Assembly (NCBI GenBank): GCA_040182905.1
Contig: JARQWU010000045.1
Span: forward strand, 1-49,857
Direction of reading: 5' to 3'
Length of the DNA: 49,857 nucleotides
DNA from: Barthelona sp. PAP020
Taxonomy: Eukaryota
The translations under genes and the position numbers were made by a program. Numbering within the stretch: the first letter of the stretch is position 1; each line of letters starts with the position of its first letter. The notes under the pieces are model-generated. The model saw only the letters and a list, made by a program, of their open reading frames with translations. It did no database searches and had not been told where the DNA came from. Below, one piece after another: positions 102 through 43,169 of the stretch.

Positions 102-194
102 ATGTTGTATGAATAGAAATTGTTTTTTTTTTCCGATTGATATTCCGAAAAATCGAATGTATAACTTGTATATTTCCAATAATCACACATAATA

Positions 195-10838: not shown

Positions 10839-11004
10839 TCGTTCAAAGGGAAAAATTATTCTTTTTTCCTTTCAAATAAAAAACATGAAAATCATATCAT
10901 TTATAATAAAATAAAACAATAAAAGACTATAAAAGACTAATAATATCTACAATGAAAAGTAAAGAAAAAAAAAAGCCATATTTGAACATCAATTACAACA
11001 AACG

Positions 11005-12585
11005 CTAATTAAAATAATCACTTAAACTCACAACGAATATTTCCTCACTCTTTGAGGGCGTGCTTTCTAATTCAACATTTGTTGCCCACCAAAAACCATT
11101 CACTCTGGAATCTAAAGTGCCTTTTACAATGGAGCCAATTTTACAAATTGAATTTCTGGAAACTTCGATAGAAACCACGGGAAACGTCTCTAAATCATTG
11201 GCGAATTCTTTGTCTAAAAGAATAAAAGAATACATTCTTCCTGTGGGGTTCTTAAAGTGTGCAATGATTGTTCCTTTTACCAAATTACCTTGTAAAGATT
11301 GAACAACACGTGGTTTATGTGCTTGAGCTTTTCCAACATTAGACCAATGAGCCGTAAATGAGACAACATCTCCTCTTCGAAATGACTGATGAGAAGATGA
11401 TTGAATATTTGCACTAAACCACACTTCCATTCCACAACTTAATTTCAAGAATCCAAAATTATTGTTGACAACATTGTAAACAAATCCTGTGTATAATTCA
11501 CCTGCTTGAAATAAATCCGACGTTTGTGGCGGTAATTCACTGAGTTCAATATCAACAGCTTCAGGACCAATATCAATATCATAACTGGCATGGAATGTAA
11601 CTCTGCTGCCAATCAAATATCTGCAATCTTGAGATCCTTTATTGTATCTTTTCTTTTTCATCAATGATCTAGGACCCAATTTAGAAACATAACCCTGATT
11701 TGTGACTTCAACATCCACCTTAAAATTTTCTAACTTGAATATGAAAACTGAATCATCTTCATCAGTGACAATAAATCCAACTAACAATTCAGAAAGATGG
11801 ATAAAGTGTTTGATGACTCCAGTTAATTTTGGCAAAACACTCATTTGAGATGAAGCAATAGAGGAGATAGAAGTGGTTGATAGCAACGATTTTGTACTGT
11901 TTGAACTTTGACTTTGAATATCTGTAGTGTTAGATTTAACGTTTCGGCTTATATTTTGCATAGATGTTGAAGCATCAGAAAGTACAGGCATTGAACTAAA
12001 CCCGACGGTTTGTGGTTCATCCTTCTTCGAAGTTGAAGACATCAAATTTGGCTGTGAAAAATTCAAATTATAGTTATAAAAACCACCAACAGGTGCACTT
12101 GCAGGAAATGTTTGCTTTAACTCTGCATGCAAAGCACTAATGGGTTCATCATCAAAAGAAGTATCAACAACTAATTGCTCATATGAAGGTGAATTGAAAC
12201 TATTAAACATATCATTTTCAGTTGAAAAGGGGAAATCTTCTTCAATGTTGAAGTGACCATTGTCCAAAGAAAAAGGTAATTCTTTTTCCAATGAAATCCC
12301 ATTTTCAATATCCTCCGTTGGAAACATAGGATAAGATGATGTTATTGAAAAAGATTGTTCAATTTCATCAACTAAAGCACTGGGTATTTCTTCATGTGAT
12401 TGATGAGTTAAAGACAGTAAATCATTTTTGAATTTTAATATCTCCCTATTATCTAGATATTTGCTCAATTCACTTGTAGGCATTTGGACTAAATAAAATA
12501 AATTATTGATTTGAGCGTTGAAATGTGGAATCAATTTAGAATACCCATGTTGACGACACCATGAGACTGCATCATTTCCAACCAT
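11005..12585 (-). CDS. Putative nucleic-acid-binding protein: N-terminal SAM-like helical domain, Ser-rich linker and 2-3 C-terminal cold-shock/OB-fold domains
   Basis: YTGFVYNVVNNNFGFLKLSCGMEVWF...FRRGDVVSF...GKAQA resembles a cold-shock domain (RNP1-like FGFL). Similar G-x-I/V starts occur at LTGVIKHF and VKGTIIAHF. The N-terminus VSWCRQHGYSKLIPHF resembles SAM helices 1-2. Confidence 0.6.
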   Translation of the reverse strand: MVGNDAVSWCRQHGYSKLIPHFNAQINNLFYLVQMPTSELSKYLDNREILKFKNDLLSLTHQSHEEIPSALVDEIEQSFSITSSYPMFPTEDIENGISLEKELPFSLDNGHFNIEEDFPFSTENDMFNSFNSPSYEQLVVDTSFDDEPISALHAELKQTFPASAPVGGFYNYNLNFSQPNLMSSTSKKDEPQTVGFSSMPVLSDASTSMQNISRNVKSNTTDIQSQSSNSTKSLLSTTSISSIASSQMSVLPKLTGVIKHFIHLSELLVGFIVTDEDDSVFIFKLENFKVDVEVTNQGYVSKLGPRSLMKKKRYNKGSQDCRYLIGSRVTFHASYDIDIGPEAVDIELSELPPQTSDLFQAGELYTGFVYNVVNNNFGFLKLSCGMEVWFSANIQSSSHQSFRRGDVVSFTAHWSNVGKAQAHKPRVVQSLQGNLVKGTIIAHFKNPTGRMYSFILLDKEFANDLETFPVVSIEVSRNSICKIGSIVKGTLDSRVNGFWWATNVELESTPSKSEEIFVVSLSDYFN

Positions 12586-12800
12586 TTTTTAAAAATTTCC
12601 AAAAATAATGAATGAAAGGGTATTTTTAAAAAAGAATAAAAGATAGAACTTTTTTTTTTTACAAAGAATTCTTTTTCATTTGAATAAATCATTGTTTCTC
12701 AAGTTTGTTTGTGTAAAATAAAGAAAAATGAAGTGGTTTTTTTTCGAACAATTTTCTGTTTGAACAAAAAAATTTTTTTTAAAGACTATCAAATTAATGC

Positions 12801-14689: not shown

Positions 14690-17600
14690 GTGTTCGTAGC
14701 AAAGCGGACGGATTTCACGTAAAAGACAATATAAATGTGTTTAAGGTTTCTTCTTGCAATTTCTGATATTAATGGATATCAAAATTGAAAGTGAAATAAC
14801 AACAAAGAATCAAATGATTCAGGGTAATAAGGATGCAAGTGTGCATAGTAGGTTAGCAAGGAATTACATGGTTTCATCAAGGAAACCCAGAGAAGAACAA
14901 TCAAAATTTATTGGCAAGAAGGGAAAAGATTATTAAACTTTTATTTAGATAATCGCCCCATCCACACCTAAAGTATTTCAAAATGGTTATGGAAAAAGAA
15001 ATCGTGGATGACGCCGAAGCAATGGATGAAAGGGTTAATTTATGCACAGAAAACCTAGCTATTCTCCAGGCAAAACTTAGCATGATGACTGAAAACTTTG
15101 AGTCACTTGCTGGAGGGAAAAAGGATAGCAAGAGATCTAAACCCAAGGATGAATACACGGGAGAAAGGGTTCTCAAAAAAATGTTTGACCACCAACAATG
15201 GTTAGAGGAGATTTTCGGTGAAATCTCTTTTAAAGAAACATGTTCTGGACGTTTCAATCATAAAAAACTTCAGTTCATGATCCCAATCGCTCTGTTCATG
15301 GGAGACATGTTCAGAGCATTAAATTTAAAAGATTTTGATCTCTCTCCTGCACTTGAAGACATCAAAATTGTCTTAAAAAAATTCTTAAGAAGTGAGTGGT
15401 GGGAAAGTTCAATCAAACATCAATTGATGAATTTAAGTTGCATACATCAATTGTTTTGGGAATATAGGGAACCAAAAGAACGGTTCAAAAACAAGAAGAA
15501 GAATAAATTCAGGTCAATAGAAGAAAGAATTGACAAAAAAATTGACCAATTACTGTTAAAAAAGGAGCAGGTGGTAGTCCAAAATGAGACTATGAAAACT
15601 TTAAAAAAGGATTTAAAGAAAATTAAGCCACCAGAACGCTCAGAAAAAGAAGAAAAAATTTTTACAGAAGAGGTTCAAAATCCTCCAAATTTTATTTTAA
15701 AGAGGGATTCCATTCAAATAGTTCCAAATTCTAATTGTGATGGAAACTGGAATCCTGATGAATTCATAAAGTTAACAAAAGCGTTGCATTACACAAAGGA
15801 ACAGCAAGCTTTTATAAAAGAAATTGTTACTGGTGCTCCAACATTAGTTGATCCGGAACTCACAGGTTCAAATGAAGTGGATCACTGGGCTGGGAGTCAG
15901 ATAAATAAAGTATTAGAAAAATGGACAGAAGGCAATAATAATGTGTTAAAAGAATACAATGGTCCAATCATAAAAAATGCAGCTTTAGGCGCTGTACCTA
16001 AATCAGATGGAACAATAAGACCCATTCTGGATTGCACGCCTATGAACTCGGTCAGCATGTTGTGGCCACACGAGTTAAACTGTTATAGGTATTTTCCTTT
16101 AATACCTAAATTCGCTGCAGTACTGGACATAAAAGATGGGTATACTCACATACCTTTAAGTGAAGATTGGCTACCAATGACGGTAGTAGAAGTGGAAACA
16201 AAGAAGTATGCAGCCCAAAGATTACCTTTTGGGTCTGCTGTTTCTGCACAATTATTTTCAATGGCCCTACAAGTTCCCGTTGATGCTGCTAGAGCAAATG
16301 GAGTATTCGTCTTGCAATACGTTGACGATCTGCTCATCGGCGGAGATACTTTAGAAGAATGCAAAAAGAATACAAAAATCATGATGAATTTGCTAAAACA
16401 GGTGGGGTTTAAAGTTAAAGAATCAAAGATCCAGAAGCCATGCACTGAAGTAGAATATCTTGGCTTCAAGATTAATACCAAAGAAAGGGTAATTAGCTTA
16501 CCAAAGGAAAAAAGAAATGCAATGCTGGATATGCTAAACGGATTAACAATTCAAGGAGCGATCTCGCTCGAAGGAAAACTACAATCAGCCAGCATTGTTT
16601 CACAAAAATACAGAGGAATTGCTTTAGAGTTAGGAAACGTTATTCACTACAAGAAACATTATTTTGGTGCAAAAGACTTGAAAGAATTAATTACAAAATA
16701 TGGACACTTAAAAATTGAAATTACTGAAAATCTGAAGGATAAAATTGAAAAGTTGCTTAGCATAGAGTTAAAGGGAGAATTATGTCCCAGAGTTGTGACA
16801 GGAATAATCGCTACAGATGCTTCGTTGAAAGGAATAGGTTGGGTTTTGGAACAAAAAGACCAAAGCAGACCATTAATGCATAAACAAGAGGTTTCCAGTG
16901 GAGAAACAAACATCGCAGTTATTGAATTAGAAGCGCTATGGCAAGCATTATTAAAGATGAAGAAGCAAGCTAAGGACGCGTGCTGGGTATGGTTGATTGA
17001 CAACCAAAACGCCTTAGCAGCATTTAGAAAACAGAAAAGTTCGAGTATGAAGCTATCTACGTTATCGAAGAAAATATGGGAATTGATTGAATCACTGAAT
17101 TGTCAAGTGATTCCATTTTGGATACCAACAAAAAAGAATACAATAGCAGATATGCTTTCCCGAGGGAAAACAATGAAGATTTCGAAAGGAGTCGTGTTTA
17201 CAGACATATCGTTATGTCCAGAAGAATTCAAAATACCGTCATACATGTATCCTTCATACACAGCATTGAGAATGTGTCCTCGAGTGAAGAATAGAACAGG
17301 AAAAAACTTACAAGGAAAATCAAGGTCAATAAGAAGAATTTTAGATAGAACAAGAATAAGAACTGGGAAATTCCCAGATGAGATTAAAGAAGATTTATGG
17401 AAAGAAGATTTAAATGAAGAAGAAGAAGAAAATGAAGAATTAGAAAAATTGAAAGATGAGAGAAATATTAAGGATGAAGAGACATTAGATGAAGAATGGG
17501 CCGCAATAGGTTATGATTCAATATTGTTTTACACAGCCGTGCAGAAAATAGGTACAAAGATGTACTACAAAGAAACAGTGGAGAATGTAGTTTTAGATTT

Positions 17601-18940
17601 GATTCTTAGAGCTGCAAGGTTTGGCGTTAATGTGGAAGTAAAAGGAATAGAGGCAGAGTCTTACCCTGCCTGGAGATCGTTGGTGAAATTTTGCGATGGA
17701 AACAGAAGTATCCAAATAGAAAGTGGAAAGTTCCAACAATTATTTAATTCACAGACAAACTGTTACGATGATGTAGAGAAAGAATTCACAAGATACAGAT
17801 GGGATGATTCCCTTGTGTGGGAAACCATGAAACTAGGAGTTGCAAAGTCAACATGGGATCAATACGAAGGATATTACACAAGATTCTTGAATTACTGCAA
17901 GAAAAGAGGAAGGATAGATGACTTGGATAAAATTGATCATGAGCTGGAATCACTGGCACATGAGTTCGTAGACACGGAAGGTTTAAAGAGAAATGATAAC
18001 GGAAACTACAAGATGAAAGCAGAGACGCTTGGTAGAATATATGCAGGAATAGTATACTTTTGGAAAGCCATTGGCTGGAATGCAGGTGGTGGATTTATGA
18101 ATATGAAGAAGATGATGCTAGCCAAGCACAAAAGATTAAGACCCCCGACGGCAGAAGATCACCGACCGAAGACTGCAATAAGAAGAAAGCAGTTGGTAGA
18201 CTTTTGTCGATACATGATAGAAAACAGTAAACAGGATAAAGAAATGATTAACGACATGTTGGATGCAGCATGTACGTTGTATTTCACTTGCTCGAGAAGA
18301 AGTGATTTGGAAAGTGGTTCAATTGAAGTGAAGGTTGGGCCAAAGACAGTTTTAATGTTTATATACTGTAAGAAGGTGAAAAGTATTAAAGAAGTATCCC
18401 TATTTTGGACAGAATTAGAAGGAAAGGGAGGATTCGAAAAGCGATTGTTAGATAGTTATAAAACAAGAATAAGAAGAGGACAGGTAATAAGCCTGACAAA
18501 TAATGTTGAGAAAATTAAAGAAATTAATGAAAATTTATCGAAAGAATTAAAGAAGTTCTGTAAGGAAAGGAACTTCAATTATCCACTGGCTCTTCACTCG
18601 TTTAGAAGAGGAAGGGCCAGGGCTTTGTTCAAGGCTTTAGAAAATGGGGATCGTGCCGGTGATATAGACGTACTGAAACAAATGGGTGGATGGAAGTCTG
18701 TTCAAATGGCCGAGTTGTACGCAGCTCATTCGGTTTACGTGGATTCGATTCAGAATAATTCTGGACAAGAGTGTTCTGAACCATCCACGCAAAACGACTC
18801 AGTTGCAAGTACCCCCAAACTCTAACCGAGAACAATAAAGATCTTCATAAACATTTATTATTATTGTCGTGTGAAATTTCCCCAACCCCAGTTGGTAAAT
18901 AAATTAAAGCCTTTAATTTTGCCCTTTCGTCTAACATGAA
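14690..18940 (+). mobile_element. Tyrosine-recombinase (DIRS-order) retrotransposon, apparently intact; boundaries approximate
   Basis: Carries RT, RNase H and tyrosine recombinase domains. Imperfect inverted repeats lie at 14712-14743 and 18848-18877, and the purine-rich, intronless composition differs from the flanks. Confidence 0.85.
14983..18825 (+). CDS. Single-ORF polyprotein (1280 aa): Gag-like/coiled-coil N-terminus, reverse transcriptase, RNase H, linker, tyrosine recombinase
   Basis: RT: AVPKSDGTIRPILD, LDIKDGYTHI, RLPFG, YVDD (16318-16329), EYLGF. DIRS-type RNase H: TDAS (~16813), ELEA, DNQ, NTIADMLSR. Recombinase: STWDQY..RFLNYC, CSRRSDL, HSFRRG (18595), GGWKS, MAELY (Tyr at 18718). 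Confidence 0.93.
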   Translation: MVMEKEIVDDAEAMDERVNLCTENLAILQAKLSMMTENFESLAGGKKDSKRSKPKDEYTGERVLKKMFDHQQWLEEIFGEISFKETCSGRFNHKKLQFMIPIALFMGDMFRALNLKDFDLSPALEDIKIVLKKFLRSEWWESSIKHQLMNLSCIHQLFWEYREPKERFKNKKKNKFRSIEERIDKKIDQLLLKKEQVVVQNETMKTLKKDLKKIKPPERSEKEEKIFTEEVQNPPNFILKRDSIQIVPNSNCDGNWNPDEFIKLTKALHYTKEQQAFIKEIVTGAPTLVDPELTGSNEVDHWAGSQINKVLEKWTEGNNNVLKEYNGPIIKNAALGAVPKSDGTIRPILDCTPMNSVSMLWPHELNCYRYFPLIPKFAAVLDIKDGYTHIPLSEDWLPMTVVEVETKKYAAQRLPFGSAVSAQLFSMALQVPVDAARANGVFVLQYVDDLLIGGDTLEECKKNTKIMMNLLKQVGFKVKESKIQKPCTEVEYLGFKINTKERVISLPKEKRNAMLDMLNGLTIQGAISLEGKLQSASIVSQKYRGIALELGNVIHYKKHYFGAKDLKELITKYGHLKIEITENLKDKIEKLLSIELKGELCPRVVTGIIATDASLKGIGWVLEQKDQSRPLMHKQEVSSGETNIAVIELEALWQALLKMKKQAKDACWVWLIDNQNALAAFRKQKSSSMKLSTLSKKIWELIESLNCQVIPFWIPTKKNTIADMLSRGKTMKISKGVVFTDISLCPEEFKIPSYMYPSYTALRMCPRVKNRTGKNLQGKSRSIRRILDRTRIRTGKFPDEIKEDLWKEDLNEEEEENEELEKLKDERNIKDEETLDEEWAAIGYDSILFYTAVQKIGTKMYYKETVENVVLDLILRAARFGVNVEVKGIEAESYPAWRSLVKFCDGNRSIQIESGKFQQLFNSQTNCYDDVEKEFTRYRWDDSLVWETMKLGVAKSTWDQYEGYYTRFLNYCKKRGRIDDLDKIDHELESLAHEFVDTEGLKRNDNGNYKMKAETLGRIYAGIVYFWKAIGWNAGGGFMNMKKMMLAKHKRLRPPTAEDHRPKTAIRRKQLVDFCRYMIENSKQDKEMINDMLDAACTLYFTCSRRSDLESGSIEVKVGPKTVLMFIYCKKVKSIKEVSLFWTELEGKGGFEKRLLDSYKTRIRRGQVISLTNNVEKIKEINENLSKELKKFCKERNFNYPLALHSFRRGRARALFKALENGDRAGDIDVLKQMGGWKSVQMAELYAAHSVYVDSIQNNSGQECSEPSTQNDSVASTPKL

Positions 18941-19949: not shown

Positions 19950-22900
19950 TTAATTGTAGAAGGACCGTAAAAGCTCTACAATTTGAGCATGACCGTTGGT
20001 TCGGGCAATATCTATTGGTGTCAATCCTTGTTCAGTTTTGAGGTTGACATTGGCTTTATGATACAAGAGCATTTTAGCAACATCAACATGACCTTCTTGA
20101 CAACTAATATACAATGGCGAGCAACCATCTTTATCACATTGATTGGCATCAACCCCATGATCCTCTAAGAGCATTTTAGCAACATCAACATGACCTTCTT
20201 GACAACTAATATGCAATGGATAACGACCATTTTTATCACATTGATTGGCATCAACCCCATGATCCTTCAATAGCATTTTGACAACATCAACATGACCTTC
20301 TTGACAACTAACGAACAATGGAGATTGACCATCTTTATCACATTGATTGGCATCAACCCCATGATCCTCCAATATCATTTTGGCAACATCAACATGACCT
20401 TCTTGACAACTAATATGCAATGGATAACGACCATCTTTATCACATTGATTGGCATCAACCCCATGATCCCTTAATAGCATTTTGACAACATCAACATGAC
20501 CTTCTTGACAACTAACGAACAATGGAGATTGACCACATTTATCACATTGATTGGCATCAACCCCATGATCCTCCAATAGCATTTTTGCAACATCAAGATG
20601 ACCTTCTTGACAACTAATATACAATGGAGACCAACCATCTTTATCACATTGATTGGCATCAACCCCATGATCCTCTAATAGCATTTTGGCAACATGAAGA
20701 TGACCATTTTGACAACTAACGAACAATGGAGAGCAACCATCTTTATCACATTGATTGGCATCTACCCCATAATCCTCCAATAGCATTTTGGCAACATCAA
20801 GATGACCATAATAACAACTGAAGAGCAGTGGAGAGTGACCACCTTTATCACATTGATTGGCATCAACCCCATGATCCTCTAATAGCATTTTGGCAACATG
20901 AAGATGACCTTTTTGACAACAAATATGCAATGCAGAGCGACCATCTTCATCACATTGATTGACATCAACACTATGATCCAACAGCATTTTGGCAACATCA
21001 AGATGACCTTCTTGACAACTAATATACAATGGATAGCGACCATAATTATCACATTGATTGACATCAACCCCATGATCCAAGAGCATTTTGGTAATATCAA
21101 GATGACCATTTTGACAACTAATGAACAATGGAGAAGTGCCATCATCTCTGCACAAATTAATATCTTCCCCAAGATCTACGAGCATTTTGGCGATATGAAC
21201 ATGACCACATTCACAACTCACAAATAATGGCGACTCATCATTGTTCATACATAATTTGACATTGGCACCACGGTTCAAAAGTAGCTTTGCAATATCAAAA
21301 TAACCTTGTTGACAAGTGATATACAATGGCGAAGTACCATTATTCGTACACAAATTAATATTTGCCCCATGATCCAAAAGCACTTTTGCAACATCAATAT
21401 GACCTTGTTGGCAACATAAAAATAATGCAGAAAAGCCATCACCACCACATTTATCGATATCAGCCTCATGACACAATAAAAACTTTACCAAATCAACACA
21501 ACCTTTAAAGCAACTAGCAACCAATGGTGATAAGCCATTTTTCACACACAAACTAATATCAGCACCCCATTTCAAAAGCATTTTAGCAAGATCCAAATGA
21601 CCTTCTTGACAACTGATGTAAAATGGTGAAGCCCCATCATTAGCACATTTGTTGATATCAGCTCCATAATCTAATAGCATAGTTGCCACATCAAGATGAC
21701 CTTGAAAACAACTAACACACAATGGAGAGTAACCATTTTTCATACACAAACTAGCATTAGCACCCCATTTCAAGAGCATTTTAGCAACATCAAAATGACC
21801 CTCTTGACAACTAATCAAAAATGGTGAAGCCCCATCATCACCACATTTATTGATATCAGCTCCATAATCCAATAGCATAGTTGCCACATCAAGATTGCCT
21901 GAAAGACAACTAACATACAATGGAGACATACCATTATTCCTACACAAATTAACATTAGCCCCATTATCCAACAGCATTTCGACAATCTCATCATGACCTT
22001 GAAAACAACTAACATACAATGGAGAGCAACCATTTTTCATACACAAACTAACATTAGCACCCCATTTCAAGAGCATTTTAGCAACATCAAAATGACCCTC
22101 TTGACAACTAATCAAAAATGGTGAAGCCCCATTATCAGCACATTTATTGATATCAGCTCCATAATCCAATAGCATTTCCACCATATCAAGATTGCCTGAA
22201 AGACAACATGCAAACAATGGACGGAGAACACCATCATCACATATGTTAACATCAGCACCATGATCCAAGAACATTTTTACAAGTGAAGAATAACCCCTTT
22301 TACAACATATTAACAATGGGGAAGCACCATTATATTGGCACAAATTAACATCAGCCCCATGATCCAAGAGCATTTTGGCAACATCAAGATGACCATTGTA
22401 ACAACTCATGTACAATGAAGAAGTTCCATCATGCACACACAAATTAACATCAGCCCCATGATTCAAGAGCATTTTGGCAACATCAAGATGACCATTCTGA
22501 CAACTCATGTACAATGGAGAAGTACCATTCTTATTACACAAATTAACATCAGTCCCATGATCCAAGAGCATTTTGACAACATCAAGATGACCATTGTAAC
22601 AACTGACAAGCAATGGAGAAGCATCATATTTATCACATTGATTAACATCAACTCTTTGATCCAAGAGCATTTTGACAATCTCTAAATAGCCCTTAAAACA
22701 ACTGATATACAACGGTGAAACCCCATTGATCGTGCATTTGTTGACATCAGCTCCTTTGTCCAAAAGCATTCTAACCACATCATTATGCCCATTTTCACAG
22801 GCAGTAAATAATGAACAAGCACCAGTATTCTTACAAAAGTTGATATCGACCTCAAAATCCAACAACATCTCCACAATATCACTATGACCACAAGAAGAAG

Positions 22901-24560
22901 CCTCCCAAAGAACGGTTTCACCCTCATTTCCAACCTTTATCCATTGTTTAACAACTTCCAATTTTCTATCACGCACACTATGATATATCGTATCTGTATT
23001 GCAATATTCGAAAAAATTATCTGGAACAATAACTTCATATAATCTATGTTTCATATAAGAATCAACAATGGCAGTAGGAACGATTTTCAAGTCAGCAATC
23101 AACCCATCGAGATACTCAACTATTTCTGAAAACATTGGTCTATTTTCGGGATCACGATTAAAACACTGAAACATAAAATTATATCCAATGGCCGATTCTA
23201 ATTCTTCGTGTTTAAAAGGCAATTCACCCTTATATAATTTTAGAGGAATTACACGATCAGAAATTCCTTCAAAAGGCTTGAACATTGTCATCACTTCAAA
23301 GTAAGTTGTTGCAAATGCCCAGCAATCAATACCAGGATGAGCAAAAATTTCATTGTTTACCAATTCAGGAGGCATATAACAAATGGTTCCTGTCTTAGAC
23401 ATCCTACTGTTTCTTTCAAAAGAACGAACAAGACCAAAATCGCACAGAGCAGTTGTTCCATCCTTTCTGATCAAAACATTCTTTGGATTGATATCTCGAT
23501 GAATTACACCTTTACTATGACAAAATTCAAGTGCAGAAGACAGTTGTAACATACTGATTAATCTCTCAAGAACAGTCATTTCAGCCATTCTTTTACTCAA
23601 TGTATATGGGCAATATTCCATCACAATTCCCCAATGATTTTTATCATTTTTACCTTTCCATTTCTTACATGTCATACCATACACTTTGCAAATGAATTGA
23701 TGAGGAAATTTTACAGCAATACATTCACCTTTCACTTCTTTTTTAGTTGAAGTATTGATAAATTTTATAGCAACATCGGAGTGCTGATGTTGACCAAAAT
23801 AAACTGTGCCATAACTACCGGATCCCAATTCCCTTTCTTCATTTAACAGTTCATAATCTATAAATGGAACCTTAAACGCAGAACTGACGAGTTTCTGTTC
23901 AAATTCATTCATTTTTTGTTGCAACTCTTCCATCTTTTTCTTACGTTCTAAAGGATCCATTTTCGACATTTCATTCATTTGCAGATTTTGTTTTGAATGG
24001 AAAATTTCATCCATATTGAATATATGCTTGTTTATTTTGTCATAAATATTGGCAGGAAGTGGTGAAATGGAGAAAGACTTTCCACTTGACATATTATTCA
24101 AATTCTTATTTAAATTCACAGCCAAATTCTTGTTTAAATCATCAAGCTTATGGTGCAAACAAATTAAATCCTCGAAATAACTTGCATGAACAAATTTTCC
24201 AAATAAACTAACACAAATTCGATTTTCAATTAATTCCATAACTTCTTTAAAACATTCGGAAAACTGATTCAAATATTTTTCGAATCCAATATTTGTCCAA
24301 TTTTGTGTCAATATTTCTTCAAAACTGCCCAAAAACCAAAGCATTCTGAAATATAAAATTAAAACATCTTTTTCCACTTTTTTAACATTAGTAAATCCAA
24401 TTCGAAGCTCTTTTGCAACGTTTAAAATCGATACATTGTGTTGAGAAAGAGACATAAAGATTAAATCAAAATCTACCCCTTCAATGAACTCTTGAAAGTC
24501 AGCAAAATCGTCGAAAGTATCTAAAAGTGACGTTTGGTAGTTTTTTAGAGCATTTGACAT
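19950..24560 (-). CDS. Protein kinase (TKL-like) with about 29 C-terminal ankyrin repeats; probable ATG at 24560 (MSNALKNY)
   Basis: LGSGSYGTV, VAIK, HRDINPKN, DFG, GTICYMPPE, DCWAF and RP, followed by repeats of the form G-x-SPL-x-x-SC-x-x-GH-x-DVAKMLL-x-x-G-A-D-V-N. Confidence 0.92.
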   Translation of the reverse strand: MSNALKNYQTSLLDTFDDFADFQEFIEGVDFDLIFMSLSQHNVSILNVAKELRIGFTNVKKVEKDVLILYFRMLWFLGSFEEILTQNWTNIGFEKYLNQFSECFKEVMELIENRICVSLFGKFVHASYFEDLICLHHKLDDLNKNLAVNLNKNLNNMSSGKSFSISPLPANIYDKINKHIFNMDEIFHSKQNLQMNEMSKMDPLERKKKMEELQQKMNEFEQKLVSSAFKVPFIDYELLNEERELGSGSYGTVYFGQHQHSDVAIKFINTSTKKEVKGECIAVKFPHQFICKVYGMTCKKWKGKNDKNHWGIVMEYCPYTLSKRMAEMTVLERLISMLQLSSALEFCHSKGVIHRDINPKNVLIRKDGTTALCDFGLVRSFERNSRMSKTGTICYMPPELVNNEIFAHPGIDCWAFATTYFEVMTMFKPFEGISDRVIPLKLYKGELPFKHEELESAIGYNFMFQCFNRDPENRPMFSEIVEYLDGLIADLKIVPTAIVDSYMKHRLYEVIVPDNFFEYCNTDTIYHSVRDRKLEVVKQWIKVGNEGETVLWEASSCGHSDIVEMLLDFEVDINFCKNTGACSLFTACENGHNDVVRMLLDKGADVNKCTINGVSPLYISCFKGYLEIVKMLLDQRVDVNQCDKYDASPLLVSCYNGHLDVVKMLLDHGTDVNLCNKNGTSPLYMSCQNGHLDVAKMLLNHGADVNLCVHDGTSSLYMSCYNGHLDVAKMLLDHGADVNLCQYNGASPLLICCKRGYSSLVKMFLDHGADVNICDDGVLRPLFACCLSGNLDMVEMLLDYGADINKCADNGASPFLISCQEGHFDVAKMLLKWGANVSLCMKNGCSPLYVSCFQGHDEIVEMLLDNGANVNLCRNNGMSPLYVSCLSGNLDVATMLLDYGADINKCGDDGASPFLISCQEGHFDVAKMLLKWGANASLCMKNGYSPLCVSCFQGHLDVATMLLDYGADINKCANDGASPFYISCQEGHLDLAKMLLKWGADISLCVKNGLSPLVASCFKGCVDLVKFLLCHEADIDKCGGDGFSALFLCCQQGHIDVAKVLLDHGANINLCTNNGTSPLYITCQQGYFDIAKLLLNRGANVKLCMNNDESPLFVSCECGHVHIAKMLVDLGEDINLCRDDGTSPLFISCQNGHLDITKMLLDHGVDVNQCDNYGRYPLYISCQEGHLDVAKMLLDHSVDVNQCDEDGRSALHICCQKGHLHVAKMLLEDHGVDANQCDKGGHSPLLFSCYYGHLDVAKMLLEDYGVDANQCDKDGCSPLFVSCQNGHLHVAKMLLEDHGVDANQCDKDGWSPLYISCQEGHLDVAKMLLEDHGVDANQCDKCGQSPLFVSCQEGHVDVVKMLLRDHGVDANQCDKDGRYPLHISCQEGHVDVAKMILEDHGVDANQCDKDGQSPLFVSCQEGHVDVVKMLLKDHGVDANQCDKNGRYPLHISCQEGHVDVAKMLLEDHGVDANQCDKDGCSPLYISCQEGHVDVAKMLLYHKANVNLKTEQGLTPIDIARTNGHAQIVELLRSFYN
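20069..20884 (-). repeat. Eight near-identical 102-nt tandem units encoding 34-aa ankyrin repeats
   Basis: The (G/T)CATTTT..CAACAT anchor recurs at 20069, 20171, 20273, 20375, 20477, 20579, 20681, 20783 and 20885; the period then changes to 99 nt. Confidence 0.92.
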
Positions 24561-25260
24561 CAAGAATGATGAAATAAAAAAAAGATTTTCTTCTTTCTTC
24601 AATCCAGTTTAATGTTTCATTTTTAAATCACTGAATAACAATTTCTTACTCTTTTTACAAGCATTTTAGCATTTCTAGGAGTTTTTGATTGTGATAATTA
24701 GGTTAAATAACATAAATTCGCAGATTGAAATTGTGAATTGCCATTTGAGATTTCTTGAATTATATATCTTTCAGTTAATACTCTTAATTTGTTACTTTTC
24801 AAATAATTTTCAAAAAATCACAGATTCTTCCAAAATAATCTCTGAACAGAGGCTGCAAACAAGTGAATTGAAATAAAAATGAAATTCTTTAGTAACTGAC
24901 AATGAACAGGTTGAATCAGAGCTTTAGAAATTCAAATATTCTTTGTGAAAGATAACCGCGGCTATTGCTTCTGGCACCATTAATATCATTCTTTTTTGGC
25001 ATGCTCAAGCTAAAAATCCATAACAAAATGACAAAGTGGGAGACCCTTTTTTACTTGAACCCGTGTAAAATTTTAAAAATCTGTGATCTCACACTTCTTT
25101 CATGGAAGACTGAAAGAAGTTTATTGCATGACCACAAAACCCGTTATCATTGAAACTATCAACAAAAGAAGGTAAATACCCGGTCAAAACAAAGTTCTTT
25201 TCAATTCATTAGTGGTAAAAATCAATAAATTAAATTTACATTGAAATTCTCAAAAATTTT

Positions 25261-25577
25261 TAATTATTTCTAAGCCAAGAAGCACTGTGCGTATGAGTGA
25301 ATAAAAAAGAATAGTGTTTATTTGGTTGAAGGCTTTCGAGGCCCGATTGATCTGTTGAAAAACTTTTGATTTTCTAAGGTAAAGTTTAAACTTTAAAATT
25401 TTGCTTTCGCAAAAATACAAAAAAATAGGAATGGAAAATTTTTCCAAAATTTTCATACTTGATGAGCAAGATTCAATTGCAGCCACTCATTCTCTGTGGC
25501 TGAGATTTAATGAAATGAGTTTTCTCTGATTACTTTTTCTTTGTAAATAAATATAGTTGTTTCACAACTTGACCAAT
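25261..25577 (-). repeat. Dispersed repeat, copy 2 (inverted partner of 19377-19702)
   Basis: Reverse-complement match to copy 1; the two spurious ORFs over these copies also share IPIFLYFC and QQINRASKAFNQINTIL. Confidence 0.9.
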
Positions 25578-25780
25578 TCAATATCCAATTCTTCAGATTT
25601 TAGCACAAGCAGCCAAAATGAAATCAGTGATTTCATTCATTATTGAATTTTCATTGAGTAATTTTCCCGATTTTAAATCACCATTTATGATTAGAATACT
25701 CGATTTTGTTTTTGAATTGCTTTTAGGAGGACCCAAAACTCTGTCAAAAGCCAAGCTCTTCTGTATCACTGTGTCACTTA

Positions 25781-25955
25781 CCAAGAAGCACTAGGAGATG
25801 AGTGAATGACAAATATGAGTGTTTAATTGGCTGGAGGCTTTCGAAGGCAGATTGATTGGCTGAAACTTTTAATAATAAGTGAAACTGAAACTTTATAATT
25901 AGTTTAAAGTAAAAAACAAGAATTAGAAAATTTCTCCCGAGTTTTCACACTTGAA
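25781..25955 (-). repeat. Dispersed repeat, copy 3 (partial, more diverged; same orientation as copy 2)
   Basis: CCAAGAAGCACT..ATGAGTGAAT..AGTGTTTA.TTGG.TG.AGGCTTTCGA.G...GATTGAT..and TTTTCA.ACTTGA match 25275-25465. Confidence 0.75.
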
Positions 25956-26820
25956 TGTCTTTATTAAATTTTAATCCTTTGAGTTTTGTCTGAAATTTGC
26001 TAGAATGGGTGAATAATTGTGGTTGTTTCACTACTCGACCAATTCTCTTTTGTTCATTTATATGAACTGTTCTTCTTGGTTTGGAAAGAGTTTTTGATTT
26101 TTTTTTCTTTTTGTTTTTTTCATAAAAATTCCTTTCTTTTAAATTTAAGGCACAAAAAATAAATGGATGTAACATGTATCTTTATGTTTGAAAATTAAGG
26201 ATGAACATTTTGCACAGTTTTTCAAGTCATTCTTTTGTTTCCTTTTTAAAAAAGATTCGGAGTTTGGAATTTCAATACACTGGCTTAGTGCTTCAGGATA
26301 TCAATAAAATAAATATTTAAAGCATTTCTTTCCATTTATTATATGCATGAGATTTCTTGGCCTCGACTTGTTGATACAAAAAATAGTCCTTGTAAAAAAG
26401 CTTTTCATATTTTTGCAAAAAAGAAAGGAAAATGAAAATGAAGGAACATTCTTTGCTTCTAACGAAAAAAAAATTTTCCTTCTTTTCATAAACCTTAATC
26501 TTCGCAATTTTTGATCTCCTTCTGAAAAAAACTTTTTTCCAAAATCAAAAAAAAGACCATTATCAGGAAAGAAATTCGCTGATACTATTCTTCTTTCAAC
26601 CATTTTCAACTTGTGATCACAAACAAAAAAAAATAGGCCAAAAATTTTACAAAAAAAAGGGAAAAGAATGAAAAATATGATTGTAACTTCAGTGAAAACT
26701 AAAAAAACACAATACAGGTAAATACAAGTGGATAAATGAATAAATTATGGAATAAATTGAGAAATTTAGTCATGTTCAGGGCTTTTATAGCTTTTTCGAA
26801 TTTCAAAAATTTTTTTTCAT

Positions 26821-27364: not shown

Positions 27365-28687
27365 ATGAATTATCGTCCTTTTGTTCCAATTTATTTTGCC
27401 ACAAGAAGTGGAAGTTCAAAAAAAGTTGCAAGGATAATCAATGCTCAATTATCCCATTTCAATATCAACCCTGCTCTTTTGGATTTGAAAGACACATGTT
27501 TCGTTCCACCTCAACCTTTAATTATTTTTGTTATTCCTTCTTATGGCAAGGATAAACCACCTCAAACTGCGGAACAGTTTTATGAAAATATTTTCAGTGA
27601 GAATTGTCCTCGTTATGATGGTATTCAAGTTGCAATTTTCGGTATTGGTTCTTCTAACTATGTTAATACCCCTAATTGTGTTGCAGTTGACTTGATGCAA
27701 AGATTTATTGATTTAGGAGCATCAAATTGCATTCCTGTTGGTTTTGGCGATCGTAAAAAGGGCAAAGGTTTATATAATGAGGATTTGAGCACTTGGTTAA
27801 TCACTCTCTTTGAGAAAATGCAAACAAATTTTTTTAATATTGAAGAAAATGTTAATACAGCCCTTTCATTTAACAAAGAAGTCTTTGAAAATGATGTAGC
27901 CATGGAAGATGATGAGTCATATTGGGATCCCGCAACATTGAAAGATGATGAACCTGGTTTTATTCATTCCGTTGAATCTTTTAGTGGTTGTGATGGAGAA
28001 GGAGTTAGATATCTTGTTTTCCTTCAAGGTTGTCGTCTTAGATGTCTTTATTGTTGTAATCCTGATACTTGGTGTTTGCAGGCAAAAGGACAATTATCAA
28101 CACCTGCAAATATTCAAATAGGTAAAATTGTTCGCGCCAAGCCTTTTTGGAGACATGGTGGTGGTGTTACTTTATCCGGTGGAGATCCTCTATTACAACC
28201 TCGTTTTACTGCTTCTTTACTCAAACAATGCAAGGAAAACGATATAAATACCTGTTTAGAAGTTACAGGTGATGTTATTGATTCTAGAGTGCTAGATCTT
28301 GTTTTACCATTTTTGGATACGGCTATTATTTGTTTCAAAGGTATGACTGCAGAATCATATTCAAAAATTACTCGTGGAGGATCTTTGAATGTTGCTCTTT
28401 CTTTTTTGCATGAGTGTATTAAAAGAAATGTGAAAGTGTGGATTACTTATGTTCTTGTTCCAGGTTATACTGATACAGATGAAGAAATTTCTCTTTTATG
28501 TGATTTTGTGTCACATTATTCAACATATATTGAACGTATTGAGTTACTCCCTTATCATAATCTTGGAGATTTCAAATGGGAGAACATGGGTTTAAAGAAT
28601 GAACTGGGAGATCTTAAATTAGACAGAGAACGCATTCAGTTGATTCTTAACAATTTAAAAAAGCATCATAATAATGTTCTTGTTTAA
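27365..28687 (+). CDS. pflA: Flavodoxin - pyruvate formate-lyase activating enzyme (glycyl-radical activase, radical SAM) fusion
   Basis: N-terminal flavodoxin motifs IYFATRSGSSKKVA, IFVIPSYG, AIFGIGSSNY and GFGD. C-terminal GFIHSVESFSGCDGEGVRYLVFLQGCRLRCLYCCNPDTW (CxxxCxxC), GGGVTLSGGDPLLQ, YVLVPGYTD and IELLPYHNLGDFKW, all PflA-like. Confidence 0.92.
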   Translation: MNYRPFVPIYFATRSGSSKKVARIINAQLSHFNINPALLDLKDTCFVPPQPLIIFVIPSYGKDKPPQTAEQFYENIFSENCPRYDGIQVAIFGIGSSNYVNTPNCVAVDLMQRFIDLGASNCIPVGFGDRKKGKGLYNEDLSTWLITLFEKMQTNFFNIEENVNTALSFNKEVFENDVAMEDDESYWDPATLKDDEPGFIHSVESFSGCDGEGVRYLVFLQGCRLRCLYCCNPDTWCLQAKGQLSTPANIQIGKIVRAKPFWRHGGGVTLSGGDPLLQPRFTASLLKQCKENDINTCLEVTGDVIDSRVLDLVLPFLDTAIICFKGMTAESYSKITRGGSLNVALSFLHECIKRNVKVWITYVLVPGYTDTDEEISLLCDFVSHYSTYIERIELLPYHNLGDFKWENMGLKNELGDLKLDRERIQLILNNLKKHHNNVLV

Positions 28688-30732: not shown

Positions 30733-30962
30733 TTTTTTGATTTTTTTACAAAAATTGGAAATTTGATACATTTACAAAAGAAATCTTCAAAGTTCAATTC
30801 AACAAAATGCTGCATGTTTCAAACATTATATAAATATTTAACAGAAATTTGAAAAGCCAATTTTGAAAAGAAAAGAAAAGATGAACAAGGAATGAATTGG
30901 TAAAAATCGTTTCTTTGGTCAATCATTCGAAGTTCTTTTTTTAATTCAATTTGTCTTTTGTT

Positions 30963-33173
30963 ATGATTGAAGTATCAAGCGACTTGGGTACAAACGAGCT
31001 GATTCAAACAAACGAAAAAGAATTTGTCACTAAGTTTATTTTGAATTGGAAATCAAATGGTAGAAAAGAGACAAATATTTTGGAATCATTCACAGAATGT
31101 AAAAAATCTTTGAGACTTACGAAAATCCCTTCATCAACATTGCATATTCTTGATCATTACTTTTCGAGTGGTGCATTTGCATGTTTGAGTACTGCTGAAA
31201 GATGTGGAATCATGGTTATGGTTAAAATTTTTCATAAAAACCCCAATGAAAATGAACTTCTCAATGAATGTCTACCGATGGCACTGAATCATCCATTTAT
31301 CCGACAAATTCATGGTGTGACAGAAATTGGTCATAAAACTGGTATTGTGATGGAATTTTGTGATTCAGTTTTGGAACAGGAAATTGCAAATCTTACAGTG
31401 ATTGAAAAACTCACAATATTGATGCAAGTGGCTTCTGTTCTTGACTATTGTCATGAATGTGGTATCATGCATGGTGATTTAAAACCCAACAATGTTCTCT
31501 TAAGAAAGGTAAATGGAAAGTTTATTCCTGCTTTAAGTGATTTTGGAATGGTTAAAGATGCCAATAGCATGTCAATGGTTTCAACAGTTGGTGCCATTTG
31601 TTATGTTCCACCTGAAATTTTAATTAATGATTGTACAGATGATGTTAATCGCAAAGCTGTTGATGTTTGGGGTTTTGCTGTGATGATGATTTATGTGATG
31701 ACAGGCGTTCGTCCTTTTGATGGAGTTCATAACCTCAAAATTTATATGGATTTGTTAAAGGGGAAACTCCCCTATTCTGATGAAATAGTTGATTCTATTC
31801 CTGGTTTTGGCATTGTAAAGTTGTGTTTGGAGAAAGATCCAAATCAACGTCCCTCTTTTGAAATGATTGTTGATTATTTGAGGAGAATCATCAATGTTGT
31901 GGCTGTTGAAACGACGGATGTTTTGAAACCAGTAACTATTGATCCCAACGACCCAAATATAAAACATGAAATGAGTGATATTGACATCCCAAATGAATTT
32001 TCATCTTGTAACATTCCACTTAAAATGTATAATGCTGCGGTGAAGGGAAACATTTTGGTTGTTAAGCAGTGTATTAAGTTTGGAGTTGACGTGAACAAAC
32101 AAATAAAAGGAAAATCCTCCCTGTTGGTTGCTGCTGCCCATGGACATGTAGACGTGGTAGAACTGTTATTGGATTTTGGTGCTGACATTGATCTGTGCTC
32201 AGATGGTTGTTCTCCTTTGTTTGTCAGTTGTCAACACGGACGTTTCGATGTTGTTACAATGTTGTTGGAACATGATGCTGATATTGATTTGTCCAATAAC
32301 AATAAAACTTCACCTTTGTTCATGAGTTGTCAAAATTGTCATCGTGATATCGCTGAAACGCTCCTGAAATCTGGAGCTGATGTCAATTTGTGCACGTATA
32401 ATGGTGTTTCTCCATTGCTAATTAGTTGTCAAAAAGGTTTTTTTGATATTGTTAAAATGTTGTTGTCATTTGGAGCCGATGTTAATGTTCGCTCAGAAAA
32501 TGAAAGTTTTCCATTATTGATCAGTTGTGTGAATGGTGATTATAATATTGTTGAAATTCTTTTGAAGCATGGAGCTGATGTTAATCTTTGTGGCAATAAA
32601 GGTGTGTCTTCATTGTGTATTAGTTGTCAACAAAACCATTTTGATATTACTAAGCTTCTATTGGAACATGAGGCTAATGTTGACTTATGTATGAATGATG
32701 GTAGTTCTCCCTTGTTCCTCAGTTGTTTAAAAGGTCATCATCATATTGCTGAGATGCTTTTGGATTTTGGTGCTGATATTAATCTGTGTACAAACACTGG
32801 AACTTCTCCATTGCTTATCAGTTGTAATCAAGGACATGTTGATAGTGTTAAAATTCTGTTGGATCATGGTGTTGATGTTAATTTATGTAATGATTTTGGA
32901 TGTTCTCCATTGTTGGTTAGTTGTTTGAAGGGTTGTTCTGATATCGTCGAGATACTTGTTGAACATGGTGCGTATGTTAATTTATGTGATCAAAGTGGAG
33001 GTTCTCCATTGTTCGTTAGTTGTCAAAAAAATCATCTTGAGATTGTTAAAATGCTTTTAGATAATGGTGCTGATGTTCATCTGAAATTCGAAGACAATTA
33101 TTACCCTATTGATATTGCTGAAGCTTTTGGTTTTTTGGAAATTGTTGAACTTTTGAGACCTCATTATCGTTGA
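30963..33173 (+). CDS. Protein kinase with about 11 ankyrin repeats; paralogue of 19950-24560
   Basis: HGDLKPNN, DFG, GAICYVPPE and DVWGF, the same SPL-x-x-SC-x-x-GH ankyrin type, and a homologous kinase-ankyrin junction (IPNEFSSCN..VVKQCIKFG vs VPDNFFEYCN..VVKQWIKVG). Confidence 0.92.
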   Translation: MIEVSSDLGTNELIQTNEKEFVTKFILNWKSNGRKETNILESFTECKKSLRLTKIPSSTLHILDHYFSSGAFACLSTAERCGIMVMVKIFHKNPNENELLNECLPMALNHPFIRQIHGVTEIGHKTGIVMEFCDSVLEQEIANLTVIEKLTILMQVASVLDYCHECGIMHGDLKPNNVLLRKVNGKFIPALSDFGMVKDANSMSMVSTVGAICYVPPEILINDCTDDVNRKAVDVWGFAVMMIYVMTGVRPFDGVHNLKIYMDLLKGKLPYSDEIVDSIPGFGIVKLCLEKDPNQRPSFEMIVDYLRRIINVVAVETTDVLKPVTIDPNDPNIKHEMSDIDIPNEFSSCNIPLKMYNAAVKGNILVVKQCIKFGVDVNKQIKGKSSLLVAAAHGHVDVVELLLDFGADIDLCSDGCSPLFVSCQHGRFDVVTMLLEHDADIDLSNNNKTSPLFMSCQNCHRDIAETLLKSGADVNLCTYNGVSPLLISCQKGFFDIVKMLLSFGADVNVRSENESFPLLISCVNGDYNIVEILLKHGADVNLCGNKGVSSLCISCQQNHFDITKLLLEHEANVDLCMNDGSSPLFLSCLKGHHHIAEMLLDFGADINLCTNTGTSPLLISCNQGHVDSVKILLDHGVDVNLCNDFGCSPLLVSCLKGCSDIVEILVEHGAYVNLCDQSGGSPLFVSCQKNHLEIVKMLLDNGADVHLKFEDNYYPIDIAEAFGFLEIVELLRPHYR

Positions 33174-42277: not shown

Positions 42278-43093
42278 TTAAGAAGTCCAATCGAAATCGC
42301 TGGTTTCTATTTTGAAATCATGTTTTTTGATCGGCTTAGATTGCTTTTCTTTTACTTGTTCTTCACTCAAAATCTTAACAAAGGGTTTATCATTGGATTT
42401 TTTGTCGAACTTCAAGGTTGGAATTTTGAGTTCCATCTCACTTGATGATTGTGTTGAATATATTACTTCTTTAGAAACTAAATTTTTGATTTTTTCAGCC
42501 AACGTTTTTTCTTTAGTTGTTTCTAATACGTTTTCCTTGTTTGTAAACACACCTATTTGGGTTTTTTTTTCTGCTAATACCAGTGCTTCTTCCAAATTTG
42601 ATTCAATAATGGGCAATTCGTTTGAGACTGTGATTGAATCTGCTGTTTCTGTAATTTTTTCTTTTGACTCATCACCCATAAGCTCAACATCTGCTATTTT
42701 TTCAGATACATTTGATTCAATGTGTATATTAGCACCATTATCACTCATCACATCAACAGAACTTTTTTCCACCGCCTTTTGAGCAGTTTCATCTGAAACA
42801 TAATTTTGCATTTTTTCATTGTTGTTAAAACAATTATCAACACGATATTGACTTTCTTTCTTTTGTTTCATTGAACCAATTGTTTTTTGTTTTTCATCAA
42901 GATTGAAGAAAGCTTTGAATACTAGTTGCCAATCTTCATCAAGACTTTTGATGTGGTTTTTGAATTCAATATCAAATTCCTTGTTTGAATTATTATTTTT
43001 TTCAAACCATTGTAAACATTGTTTTCGATAGTTTGCACATTCAGATAAAATGATTTGTTGATCGTCTTCGGATAAAAAAGAGTAATCAACCAT
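42278..43093 (-). CDS. Hypothetical acidic protein (271 aa)
   Basis: ATG-initiated ORF filling the interval; no domain recognised. Confidence 0.65.
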   Translation of the reverse strand: MVDYSFLSEDDQQIILSECANYRKQCLQWFEKNNNSNKEFDIEFKNHIKSLDEDWQLVFKAFFNLDEKQKTIGSMKQKKESQYRVDNCFNNNEKMQNYVSDETAQKAVEKSSVDVMSDNGANIHIESNVSEKIADVELMGDESKEKITETADSITVSNELPIIESNLEEALVLAEKKTQIGVFTNKENVLETTKEKTLAEKIKNLVSKEVIYSTQSSSEMELKIPTLKFDKKSNDKPFVKILSEEQVKEKQSKPIKKHDFKIETSDFDWTS

Positions 43094-43169
43094 TTGATGG
43101 GTTAAATAAAAGAATTGAGAGCAATCAGAGGCTTTTTATTGGAATCAATTTTTTTTTTAAGTTTTTATT

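Follow-up and report, generated by a model that had tools for sequence, protein, structure and literature searches.

At issue is whether one reading frame, at positions 27365 to 28687 of the forward strand, encodes both an activating enzyme for pyruvate formate-lyase (PFL) and the flavoprotein domain that could hand this enzyme its electron. The frame lies in a stretch of 49,857 nt, the whole of which is called the window here. A reading made from the letters alone, referred to below as the sequence-only reading, had proposed such a fusion in an anaerobic protist. Published articles are cited by PMC number, each for the parts of its text that were accessible.

The reading frame and its surroundings

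We observed that the frame translates without a stop for 440 aa and that, 6 nt before its ATG, the same frame holds a stop codon; none of 20,000 shuffles of its first 591 nt was stop-free. The whole layout is common to three other proteins, which are 35-39% identical to the window protein. The frame and the introns of the adjoining gene are as follows.

27365..28687, + strand: flavodoxin-PFLA fusion, single ORF, 440 aa, with full-length homologues P0002, P0121 and P0268
28914-28950 and 29077-29113, + strand: 5' introns of a NOT3-like gene, 37 nt each, the only such short signature matches in the window

These results confirm the in-frame flavodoxin and the complete PflA-like domain of the sequence-only reading, both Pfam domains scoring above their cut-offs within the 440-aa frame, and its placement of the fusion in an anaerobic protist lineage is supported. 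The CxxxCxxC motif, here CRLRCLYC, falls exactly at 28031-28054, where it had been reported, and the linker that had been called acidic holds 13 D/E against 2 K/R in residues 156-197. The earlier statement that the gene has no intron also agrees with our observations: the two 37-nt introns of the NOT3 gene share a GTATTT ... TTCTAAC ... YAG signature, and no branch-plus-acceptor motif of this type was found within the fusion ORF. One lax 49-nt GT-AG stretch occurs in the linker, at 27851-27899; because it contains no branch motif and encodes residues common to the Barthelona protein, we read it as coding. The protein also appears to lack an obvious presequence, as had been suggested, since in the AlphaFold2 model of the window protein the flavodoxin beta-1 strand begins at residue 6, and the N-termini of all four fusions lie within about 8 residues of the flavodoxin domain.

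The GC and GC3 contents of both halves are those of the neighbouring genes, and the genes around the fusion are ordinary eukaryotic genes that form no metabolic cluster; two genes that each combine a protein kinase with ankyrin repeats flank the locus, at 19950-24608 (- strand) and 30945-33173 (+ strand). The gene-poor stretch upstream of the fusion carries two pairs of diverged direct repeats, each pair about 500 nt apart: 25293-25360 with 25798-25865 (68 nt, 79%) and 25543-25579 with 26009-26045 (37 nt, 84%). Elsewhere in the window, a single frame of 1290 codons at 14953-18825 (+ strand) matches reverse transcriptase, RNase H-like proteins and, weakly, tyrosine recombinase, and we read it as a DIRS-like retroelement; no clear terminal repeats were found at this element. 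Frames at 183-7472 (+), 11005-12588 (-), 10152-10871 (-) and 42278-43135 (-), of 2429, 527, 239 and 285 codons, respectively, have no Pfam match.

The flavodoxin-like domain

The N-terminal part of the protein matches Pfam Flavodoxin_1 (PF00258) at residues 9-144 with 54.9 bits (cut-off 25). We assign the following features to it.

27374..27829, + strand: short-chain flavodoxin-like domain of diflavin-reductase type, residues 4-155 (Pfam, profile scores and structure comparison)
27401..27418, + strand: predicted FMN phosphate-binding loop, T13-R-S-G-S-S18, which fits the consensus with Ser for Thr
27542..27544, + strand: Y60, predicted flavin-stacking aromatic, corresponding by motif position to TYW1 Y149 (PMC9186531)
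27659..27661, + strand: Y99, predicted flavin-stacking aromatic, invariant in 4/4 fusions and in 4/4 diflavin-type comparators

The best profile matches of this part were NDOR1 (73.5 bits), CPR (71), CysJ (62) and cindoxin (58); other bacterial flavodoxins and MioC scored 46 bits or less. By structure it has the five-stranded flavodoxin fold and resembles the NOS, NDOR1, BM3, CPR and TYW1 domains at Z 16-18.5, with NOS, NDOR1 and BM3 at 17.6-18.5 (NDOR1: VIA Z 18.1, rmsd 3.4, 154 aligned) and the TYW1 flavodoxin domain (6PUP) at 16.5; 6PUP was not among the 60 best sequence matches shown. AlphaFold2 gave a flavodoxin fold for both proteins modelled, those of the window and of Skoliomonas sp. 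RCL (pLDDT 86.9 and 91.7). A whole diflavin reductase was rejected, since Pfam detects no FAD- or NAD(P)H-binding domain on the fusion chain and the CysJ match covers residues 7-154 only.

From its motifs, the flavodoxin part of the fusion likely binds FMN. The phosphate-loop consensus T/S-X-T-G-X-T (PMC9186531) is met in the proteins of the window and of Skoliomonas sp. GEM-RC1; the loop of Barthelona sp. PCE is degenerate (T-Q-N-R-N-S) and that of RCL has Trp at the third position. Six FMN-site residues, G93, G95, S97, Y99, N104 and D129, are invariant in 4/4 fusions, and the Y60 position is Y in two of the four and V in the other two. The enrichment of invariant sites in the FMN loops (6/38, against 8/104 elsewhere) is not significant (p = 0.20), and the flavodoxin domain diverges faster than the activase, with 26-50% identity as against 40-71%.

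The four loops of the FMN face contain 9, 6, 5 and 4 K+R in the four fusions against 2, 3, 4 and 3 D+E, whereas those of four diflavin-type comparators, a small set, are acidic (K+R 0-2, D+E 7-10). Judged by these compositions, the FMN face of the fusions is neutral to basic, unlike that of the comparators. Going by flavodoxin mutagenesis, the loss of acid residues near FMN would tend to raise the flavin potential and to give a weaker reductant. As a separate observation, the top 100 expressed genes of Barthelona sp. PCE, the species with the degenerate fused phosphate loop, include a separate 'flavodoxin family protein' (PMC11316075 Supplementary Data 3, as far as accessible).

The activase domain

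The remainder of the chain contains the features listed here.

27956..28684, + strand: PFL-activating enzyme domain, residues 198-440, with no ferredoxin-like insert (TIGR02493, match to E. coli PFL-AE, structure)
27992..28009, + strand: DGxGxR motif of glycyl-radical activases, D210-G-E-G-V-R215 (alignment)
28031..28054, + strand: CxxxCxxC radical-SAM cluster motif, C223, C227 and C230 (alignment)
28178..28186, + strand: GGD, a SAM-binding motif of the GGE type (alignment)
28259..28447, + strand: remodelled cation site, E299, C323 and T361 at the positions of E. coli D104, D129 and R166 (alignment to E. coli PFL-AE)

Pfam Radical_SAM matches residues 218-375 with 67.1 bits (cut-off 29.5), and the PFLA equivalog TIGR02493 matches continuously from 200 to 432 with 228.9 bits, just below its cut-off of 231.75. 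PFLA is the top NCBIfam family by at least 43 bits (PFLE/PFLC 152, NrdG 50). The domain matches E. coli PFL-AE with E 1e-43 and 36-37% identity, and its partial-barrel fold is like that of PFL-AE (3cb8: VIA Z 32.8, rmsd 1.5, 241 aligned). On these grounds we predict that the radical-SAM domain activates PFL.

The DGxGxR motif, which has a peptide-binding role, is invariant in 5/5 BaSk rows and near-invariant in the 259 other rows of the alignment, and the positions of H398 and K404 are kept. The Asp at the third position of the GGE-type motif has been seen before (PMC10267522). What sets the BaSk activases apart is the region of the K+ ligands D104 and D129 and of the Arg166 switch, which have been described for the E. 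coli enzyme (PMC10267522). These three positions are E, C and T in 5/5 BaSk rows, which also share H37C; Arg166 is kept in 254/259 non-BaSk rows. The K+ site of the E. coli type (D104, D129, R166) is thus not present in the window protein. The replacement at D129 extends further, the column being Cys in 45/45 eukaryote-side rows and Asp in 215/219 others, from which it follows that the E. coli K+ site describes the E. coli enzyme and not the family. Cys at this ligand can be regarded as a one-residue marker of eukaryotic PFLA.

Distribution of the fusion

A word-based search returned, besides the window protein, one match with both domains, from Barthelona sp. PCE (best 120 of 535), and an HMMER scan of 1.84 billion representatives returned three in all, adding Skoliomonas sp. 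GEM-RC1 (best 150 of 9,271). A profile of the flavodoxin part matched 9 of the 7,996 candidates scored, namely the three known fusions, a protein of Skoliomonas sp. RCL and five proteins of sulfite-reductase type. Among the matches listed, then, the flavodoxin-PFLA fusion occurs in the window protein and three others (one from Barthelona, two from Skoliomonas), all of them BaSk metamonads, and the sequence-only reading holds in its premise that the architecture is not widespread. In a Pfam scan of 22 matches, chosen mainly by length, both domains were found only in two BaSk fusions.

Searches for looser associations gave negative results. No flavodoxin match was found within up to 3 kb of pflA at 80 prokaryotic genome loci (best 80 of at least 600) or at 80 metagenome loci (best 80 of 447), both small samples, and no flavodoxin domain was present in 40 other eukaryote-side activases. 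With residues 1-188 of P0268 as query, only the self-match was obtained among 847 candidates, and no PDB chain spanning both domains was found among the structure and sequence matches.

The one BaSk exception is the 277-aa gene model of S. litria, which begins in the linker and is without the flavodoxin domain; this may be either a real loss or a gene-model error. In the accessible parts of the BaSk genome paper, that PFLA model has an FPKM of 407, and the 438-aa model of GEM-RC1 has an FPKM of 299 and no predicted presequence (PMC11316075). The word 'activating' appears five times in the accessible gene table of the same paper, which is consistent with one PFLA per species.

Other unusual architectures were encountered among the relatives. 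Three single-chain proteins on the eukaryote side of the tree (P0227, P0240 and P0300) have PFL fused to PFLA, and a genome bin of Syntrophomonadaceae (L072:646-3732) has PFL and PflA in one frame of 1029 codons, which reflects either a genuine fusion in a bacterium or the loss of a stop codon. P0221, a PflA of 363 aa, has a C-terminal extension of about 120 aa with no further Pfam match at E 0.001. P0124, a metagenomic protein of 1839 aa with six near-identical tandem flavodoxin domains, is either real or an assembly artefact; as a relative of the flavodoxin-PFLA fusion it was rejected, its six repeats being unrelated to it.

The linker and the origin of the two halves

The segment between the two domains is short and strongly acidic.

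27830..27955, + strand: acidic linker, 42 aa, net charge -11, residues 156-197 (composition)

Linkers of the BaSk fusions are 37-50 aa long with net charges of -7 to -11. In the AlphaFold2 model of the RCL protein a low-confidence flexible hinge (157-165) is followed by an ordered segment, and pTM values of 0.79 and 0.74 for the window and RCL models hint at a fixed domain arrangement but are given no weight here. Four of the five BaSk proteins carry a D[LI]E[DN][LF] motif in the linker, which is absent from that of the window protein. A similar acidic motif, D[ILV]ED[LI]-like, occurs in 9/30 N-terminal extensions of other eukaryote-side PFLAs (carriers include P0004, P0008, P0139, P0220 and P0227) and in 0/16 others; shuffled controls gave a mean of 0.07 and a maximum of 2 in 2,000, for a pattern that was picked after viewing the sequences. 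Since the motif is common to BaSk linkers and eukaryotic PFLA extensions, the flavin domain was likely added before an existing eukaryotic extension. Similar acidic motifs may be present in TYW1 and CDKAL1. A partner common to these proteins may dock at the motif; among the matches listed, a literature search on DIEDL returned unrelated matches only.

An unrooted IQ-TREE tree was made from 61 of the 264 activase domains, comprising the 45 eukaryote-side rows of a FastTree tree and 16 bacterial rows. The five BaSk rows form one clade (100/97), where Barthelona sp. PCE and the window protein are sisters (100/97) and the S. litria activase is placed among the fused Skoliomonas proteins. Given this clade and this placement, the fusion is most simply explained as ancestral to the BaSks and lost or mis-modelled once, and we regard an ancestral origin as probable. 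The BaSk activases group with two unnamed proteins and with chytrid and blastoclad PFLAs (97/91), and a 100/99 branch parts the eukaryote-side activases from the 16 bacterial rows. Eukaryotic PFLA is reportedly of bacterial origin, as the title of a paper by Stairs in 2011 is said to claim.

The sequence-only reading had proposed halves of different origin, a bacterial-type PflA and an FMN domain of diflavin-reductase or TYW1 type. Separate origins and the diflavin-reductase type of the FMN domain stand; the activase, however, is not directly bacterial-type and groups with eukaryotic PFLAs. We find no support for TYW1 as the source of the FMN domain: the Asp-Phe-Arg loop that is conserved in the TYW1 flavodoxin domain (PMC9186531) is absent in 4/4 fusions, and the sequence and structure comparisons included one fungal TYW1 representative. 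Candidate donors of the FMN domain were at hand, as BaSks have flavodoxin modules on pyruvate:ferredoxin oxidoreductase (PFO) and on the hydrogenase HydA and also encode Tah18 (PMC11316075). As leads only, the nearest whole-protein clusters in the ESM Atlas were those of TYW1, at 0.88-0.89, and a giant-virus-rich cluster was found at 0.91.

A putative electron relay and the alternatives to it

Our preferred reading, to which we give a probability of about 0.65 from sequence and analogy, is that a separate reductant loads the tethered FMN domain, which then hands a single electron to the [4Fe-4S] cluster on the same chain. It draws on the E. coli flavodoxin donor, on the TYW1 precedent and on conservation, and the span of the four fusions across Barthelona and Skoliomonas was counted in its favour. 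In E. coli, flavodoxin is the donor to PFL-AE in vivo (PMC13450708). Its binding site is separate from the PFL interface, and only an estimated ~11% of PFL/PFL-AE complexes are occupied by it (PMC6325248); stand-alone flavodoxins are largely prokaryotic (PMC10913485). The fused domain of TYW1 binds FMN, and turnover was supported with NAD(P)H (PMC8941971).

The events might be reconstructed as follows. In a BaSk ancestor, an FMN domain of diflavin-reductase type would have been attached to the extension that an ordinary eukaryotic PFLA carries at its N-terminus. Because the fusion protein has no FAD/NAD(P)H domain, a separate reductant is inferred to load the FMN; candidates are PFO, the CysJ module on BaSk hydrogenases and Tah18. 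The FMN domain would then swing on its linker of 37-50 aa and reduce [4Fe-4S]2+ to 1+, upon which SAM would be cleaved and a glycyl radical placed on cytosolic PFL. With tethering, the acid patch by which free domains of the flavodoxin type dock would no longer be needed, and the FMN face could have become neutral to basic.

PFL is present in all published BaSks, is assumed to be cytosolic in skoliomonads and belongs to the 100 most expressed genes of three Skoliomonas (PMC11316075), which favours the probably cytosolic PFL fermentation that had been envisaged for this lineage. By eye, one S. litria PFL row in the accessible data of that paper has the loop RVSGYAV, which is accepted by E. coli PFL-AE (PMC13450708). 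No PFL gene was found within the 49,857-nt window.

Several observations count against the relay. The S. litria model is without the flavodoxin domain despite high PFL expression; to this are added the degenerate PCE loop, the Trp in RCL, the p value of 0.20, the faster divergence of the flavodoxin domain and its loss of acid residues near FMN, which would tend to weaken the flavin as a reductant, and, on the activase side, the changes at D104, D129 and R166 together with a TIGR02493 score 3 bits below cut-off. As sequences, the S. litria model and the PCE phosphate loop would speak against a strict need for the flavodoxin domain. A complex prediction with the two domains as separate chains plus FMN and 4Fe-4S, without alignments, gave a score of 0.02 and a mark of 0.34, which speak neither for nor against the relay.

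A bolder version of the relay, which we hold to be possible but unlikely, is that the BaSk activase is self-reducing. It would then be a second, independent flavodoxin-radical-SAM fusion in which the charge of the FMN domain was reversed to accept electrons from the acidic carriers of the cell or, at a slow rate, NAD(P)H, the K+/Arg166 switch was dropped, and PFL is activated without free flavodoxin or cation control.

Under the first alternative, the flavodoxin-like domain would be a passenger, decaying or devoid of flavin, that serves as a scaffold or for docking, and the electron would reach the activase in trans from ferredoxin or a different flavoprotein, as it does in other eukaryotes. 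The S. litria model, the loop of PCE (which lists a separate 'flavodoxin family protein' in its top 100), the lack of significant enrichment in the FMN loops and the 40 other eukaryote-side activases that manage without the domain are all in keeping with this. Yet 4/5 BaSk proteins, which span a deep split, have retained the domain at full length, the fusions are invariant at Y99, N104, D129 and the G-x-G-x-S motif, and the phosphate loops of the window and GEM-RC1 proteins are intact; we consider a passenger rather improbable. Slighter still are the chances of an FMN-binding domain with another redox task, one that shields or repairs an oxygen-labile cluster or gates activation by the redox state of the cell and is not a working donor. 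A neutral to basic FMN face, set against acidic comparators, would be expected to raise the flavin potential, in keeping with this idea. The ferredoxin-like inserts of other activases, too, have no settled donor role (PMC13450708), but flavodoxin is the established donor of the PFL-AE family (PMC13450708) and the working TYW1 domain also has lysines flanking its FMN site (PMC9186531).

It is very improbable that the radical-SAM domain has changed its target to another glycyl-radical enzyme or is inactive. D104E, R166T and H37C in 5/5 BaSk rows (Arg166 being kept in 254/259 others), a score just below the PFLA equivalog cut-off and the lack of PFL in the window might be so explained; against this, PFLA scores far above the other families, the domain superimposes on PFL-AE at rmsd 1.5 and is without a ferredoxin insert, PFL is highly expressed in the relatives, and the gene table, in its accessible part, is consistent with one PFLA per BaSk species. 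Finally, that two genes or a mis-assembly were read as one ORF is hardly credible: translation from Met180, within the linker, could yield a separate activase about as long as the S. litria model, but the same single-chain layout recurs in three other assemblies, there is no stop or intron signature, and the GC and GC3 of the halves are like those of neighbouring genes.

Comparison with known systems

In the literature searched, a body of full text with most subscription journals outside its coverage, we found no description of a flavodoxin-PFLA fusion, and the novelty that the sequence-only reading had attached to it stands to that extent, the fusion being unremarked in the accessible literature. 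The authors of a paper of 2021 knew of no radical-SAM proteins, other than eukaryotic TYW1, to which a flavodoxin_1 domain is attached (PMC8941971). A review of 2026 gives PFL-AE as a radical-SAM domain only, and in its accessible text the words 'fused' and 'fusion' are absent (PMC13450708). The accessible parts of the BaSk genome paper label the 438-aa GEM-RC1 protein only 'PFLA', with a domain table of PFO and HydA alone (PMC11316075), and PFL and PFL-AE have been noted in fornicates and a Barthelona in an article whose main text, as accessible, does not contain 'flavodoxin' (PMC9161772). Within the literature searched, as far as its text was accessible, this layout has thus been reported only for TYW1, an unrelated tRNA-modifying enzyme.

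Eukaryotic TYW1 (6PUP/6PUQ; PMC8941971, PMC9186531) resembles the fusion in its N-terminal short-chain flavodoxin, its linker, its radical-SAM domain and its lysines near FMN. It differs in being a tRNA-modifying enzyme with an auxiliary cluster and a Wyosine_form domain, neither of which was found in the window protein (no PF08608). The activase domain compares with archaeal TYW1 at Z 16.9 and rmsd 3.8, as against Z 32.8 and rmsd 1.5 with PFL-AE. Identity with TYW1 was rejected on the lack of Wyosine_form, the PFL-AE-type core and the missing Asp-Phe-Arg loop; since the radical-SAM halves belong to different families, the TYW1 and BaSk fusions are independent.

E. coli PflA (3CB8, 3C8F, 8FO0) shares with the fusion its fold, CxxxCxxC, DGxGxR, the lack of an auxiliary ferredoxin domain and a flavodoxin donor, but is a stand-alone protein of 245 aa served by a separate flavodoxin, whereas the window chain itself includes a diflavin-type domain and has the K+-site residues D104, D129 and R166 replaced by E, C and T. 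Unfused eukaryotic PFLAs (chytrids, green algae, Vitrella, Amoebidium) and the PFL-PFLA fusions lie on the same side of the tree, share the Cys at D129 and carry the acidic motif in 9/30 of their N-terminal extensions; they are without a flavodoxin domain, however, and Arg166 is kept in 38/40. HPAD-AE, BSS-AE and CutD-type activases also have an extra redox domain on the same chain (PMC13450708), but theirs is an Fe-S insert of unsettled function inside the radical-SAM domain, and that of the window protein is an N-terminal flavin domain.

In sequence and in structure, the N-terminal domain matches the FMN domains of diflavin reductases (NDOR1/Tah18, CPR, CysJ, NOS) best, and comparable modules occur in the PFO-flavodoxin and HydA-flavodoxin-CysJ fusions of anaerobic protists, including BaSk PFO and HydA. 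The window chain differs in having no FAD/NAD(P)H domain, in carrying the module at its N-terminus and in showing no acid clusters on the FMN face.

Only for very few radical-SAM systems has the means of reduction in the cell been settled. The scope of the present case is narrow, one protist clade, and its chemistry is as expected; yet it would be a second, independent joining of flavodoxin to radical-SAM, on an enzyme for which flavodoxin is the textbook donor, and it suggests that eukaryotic PFL activases, in cells mostly without free flavodoxin, may draw on diflavin-type FMN modules as donors. A natural single chain of 440 aa also offers a means to trap the contact between flavodoxin and cluster, and its D104E/D129C/R166T set is a natural test of the need for the K+/Arg166 switch of E. 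coli PFL-AE. In the aggregate, the fusion has the layout of TYW1 and would have the chemistry of PflA with its flavodoxin, and is itself neither a TYW1 nor a diflavin reductase.
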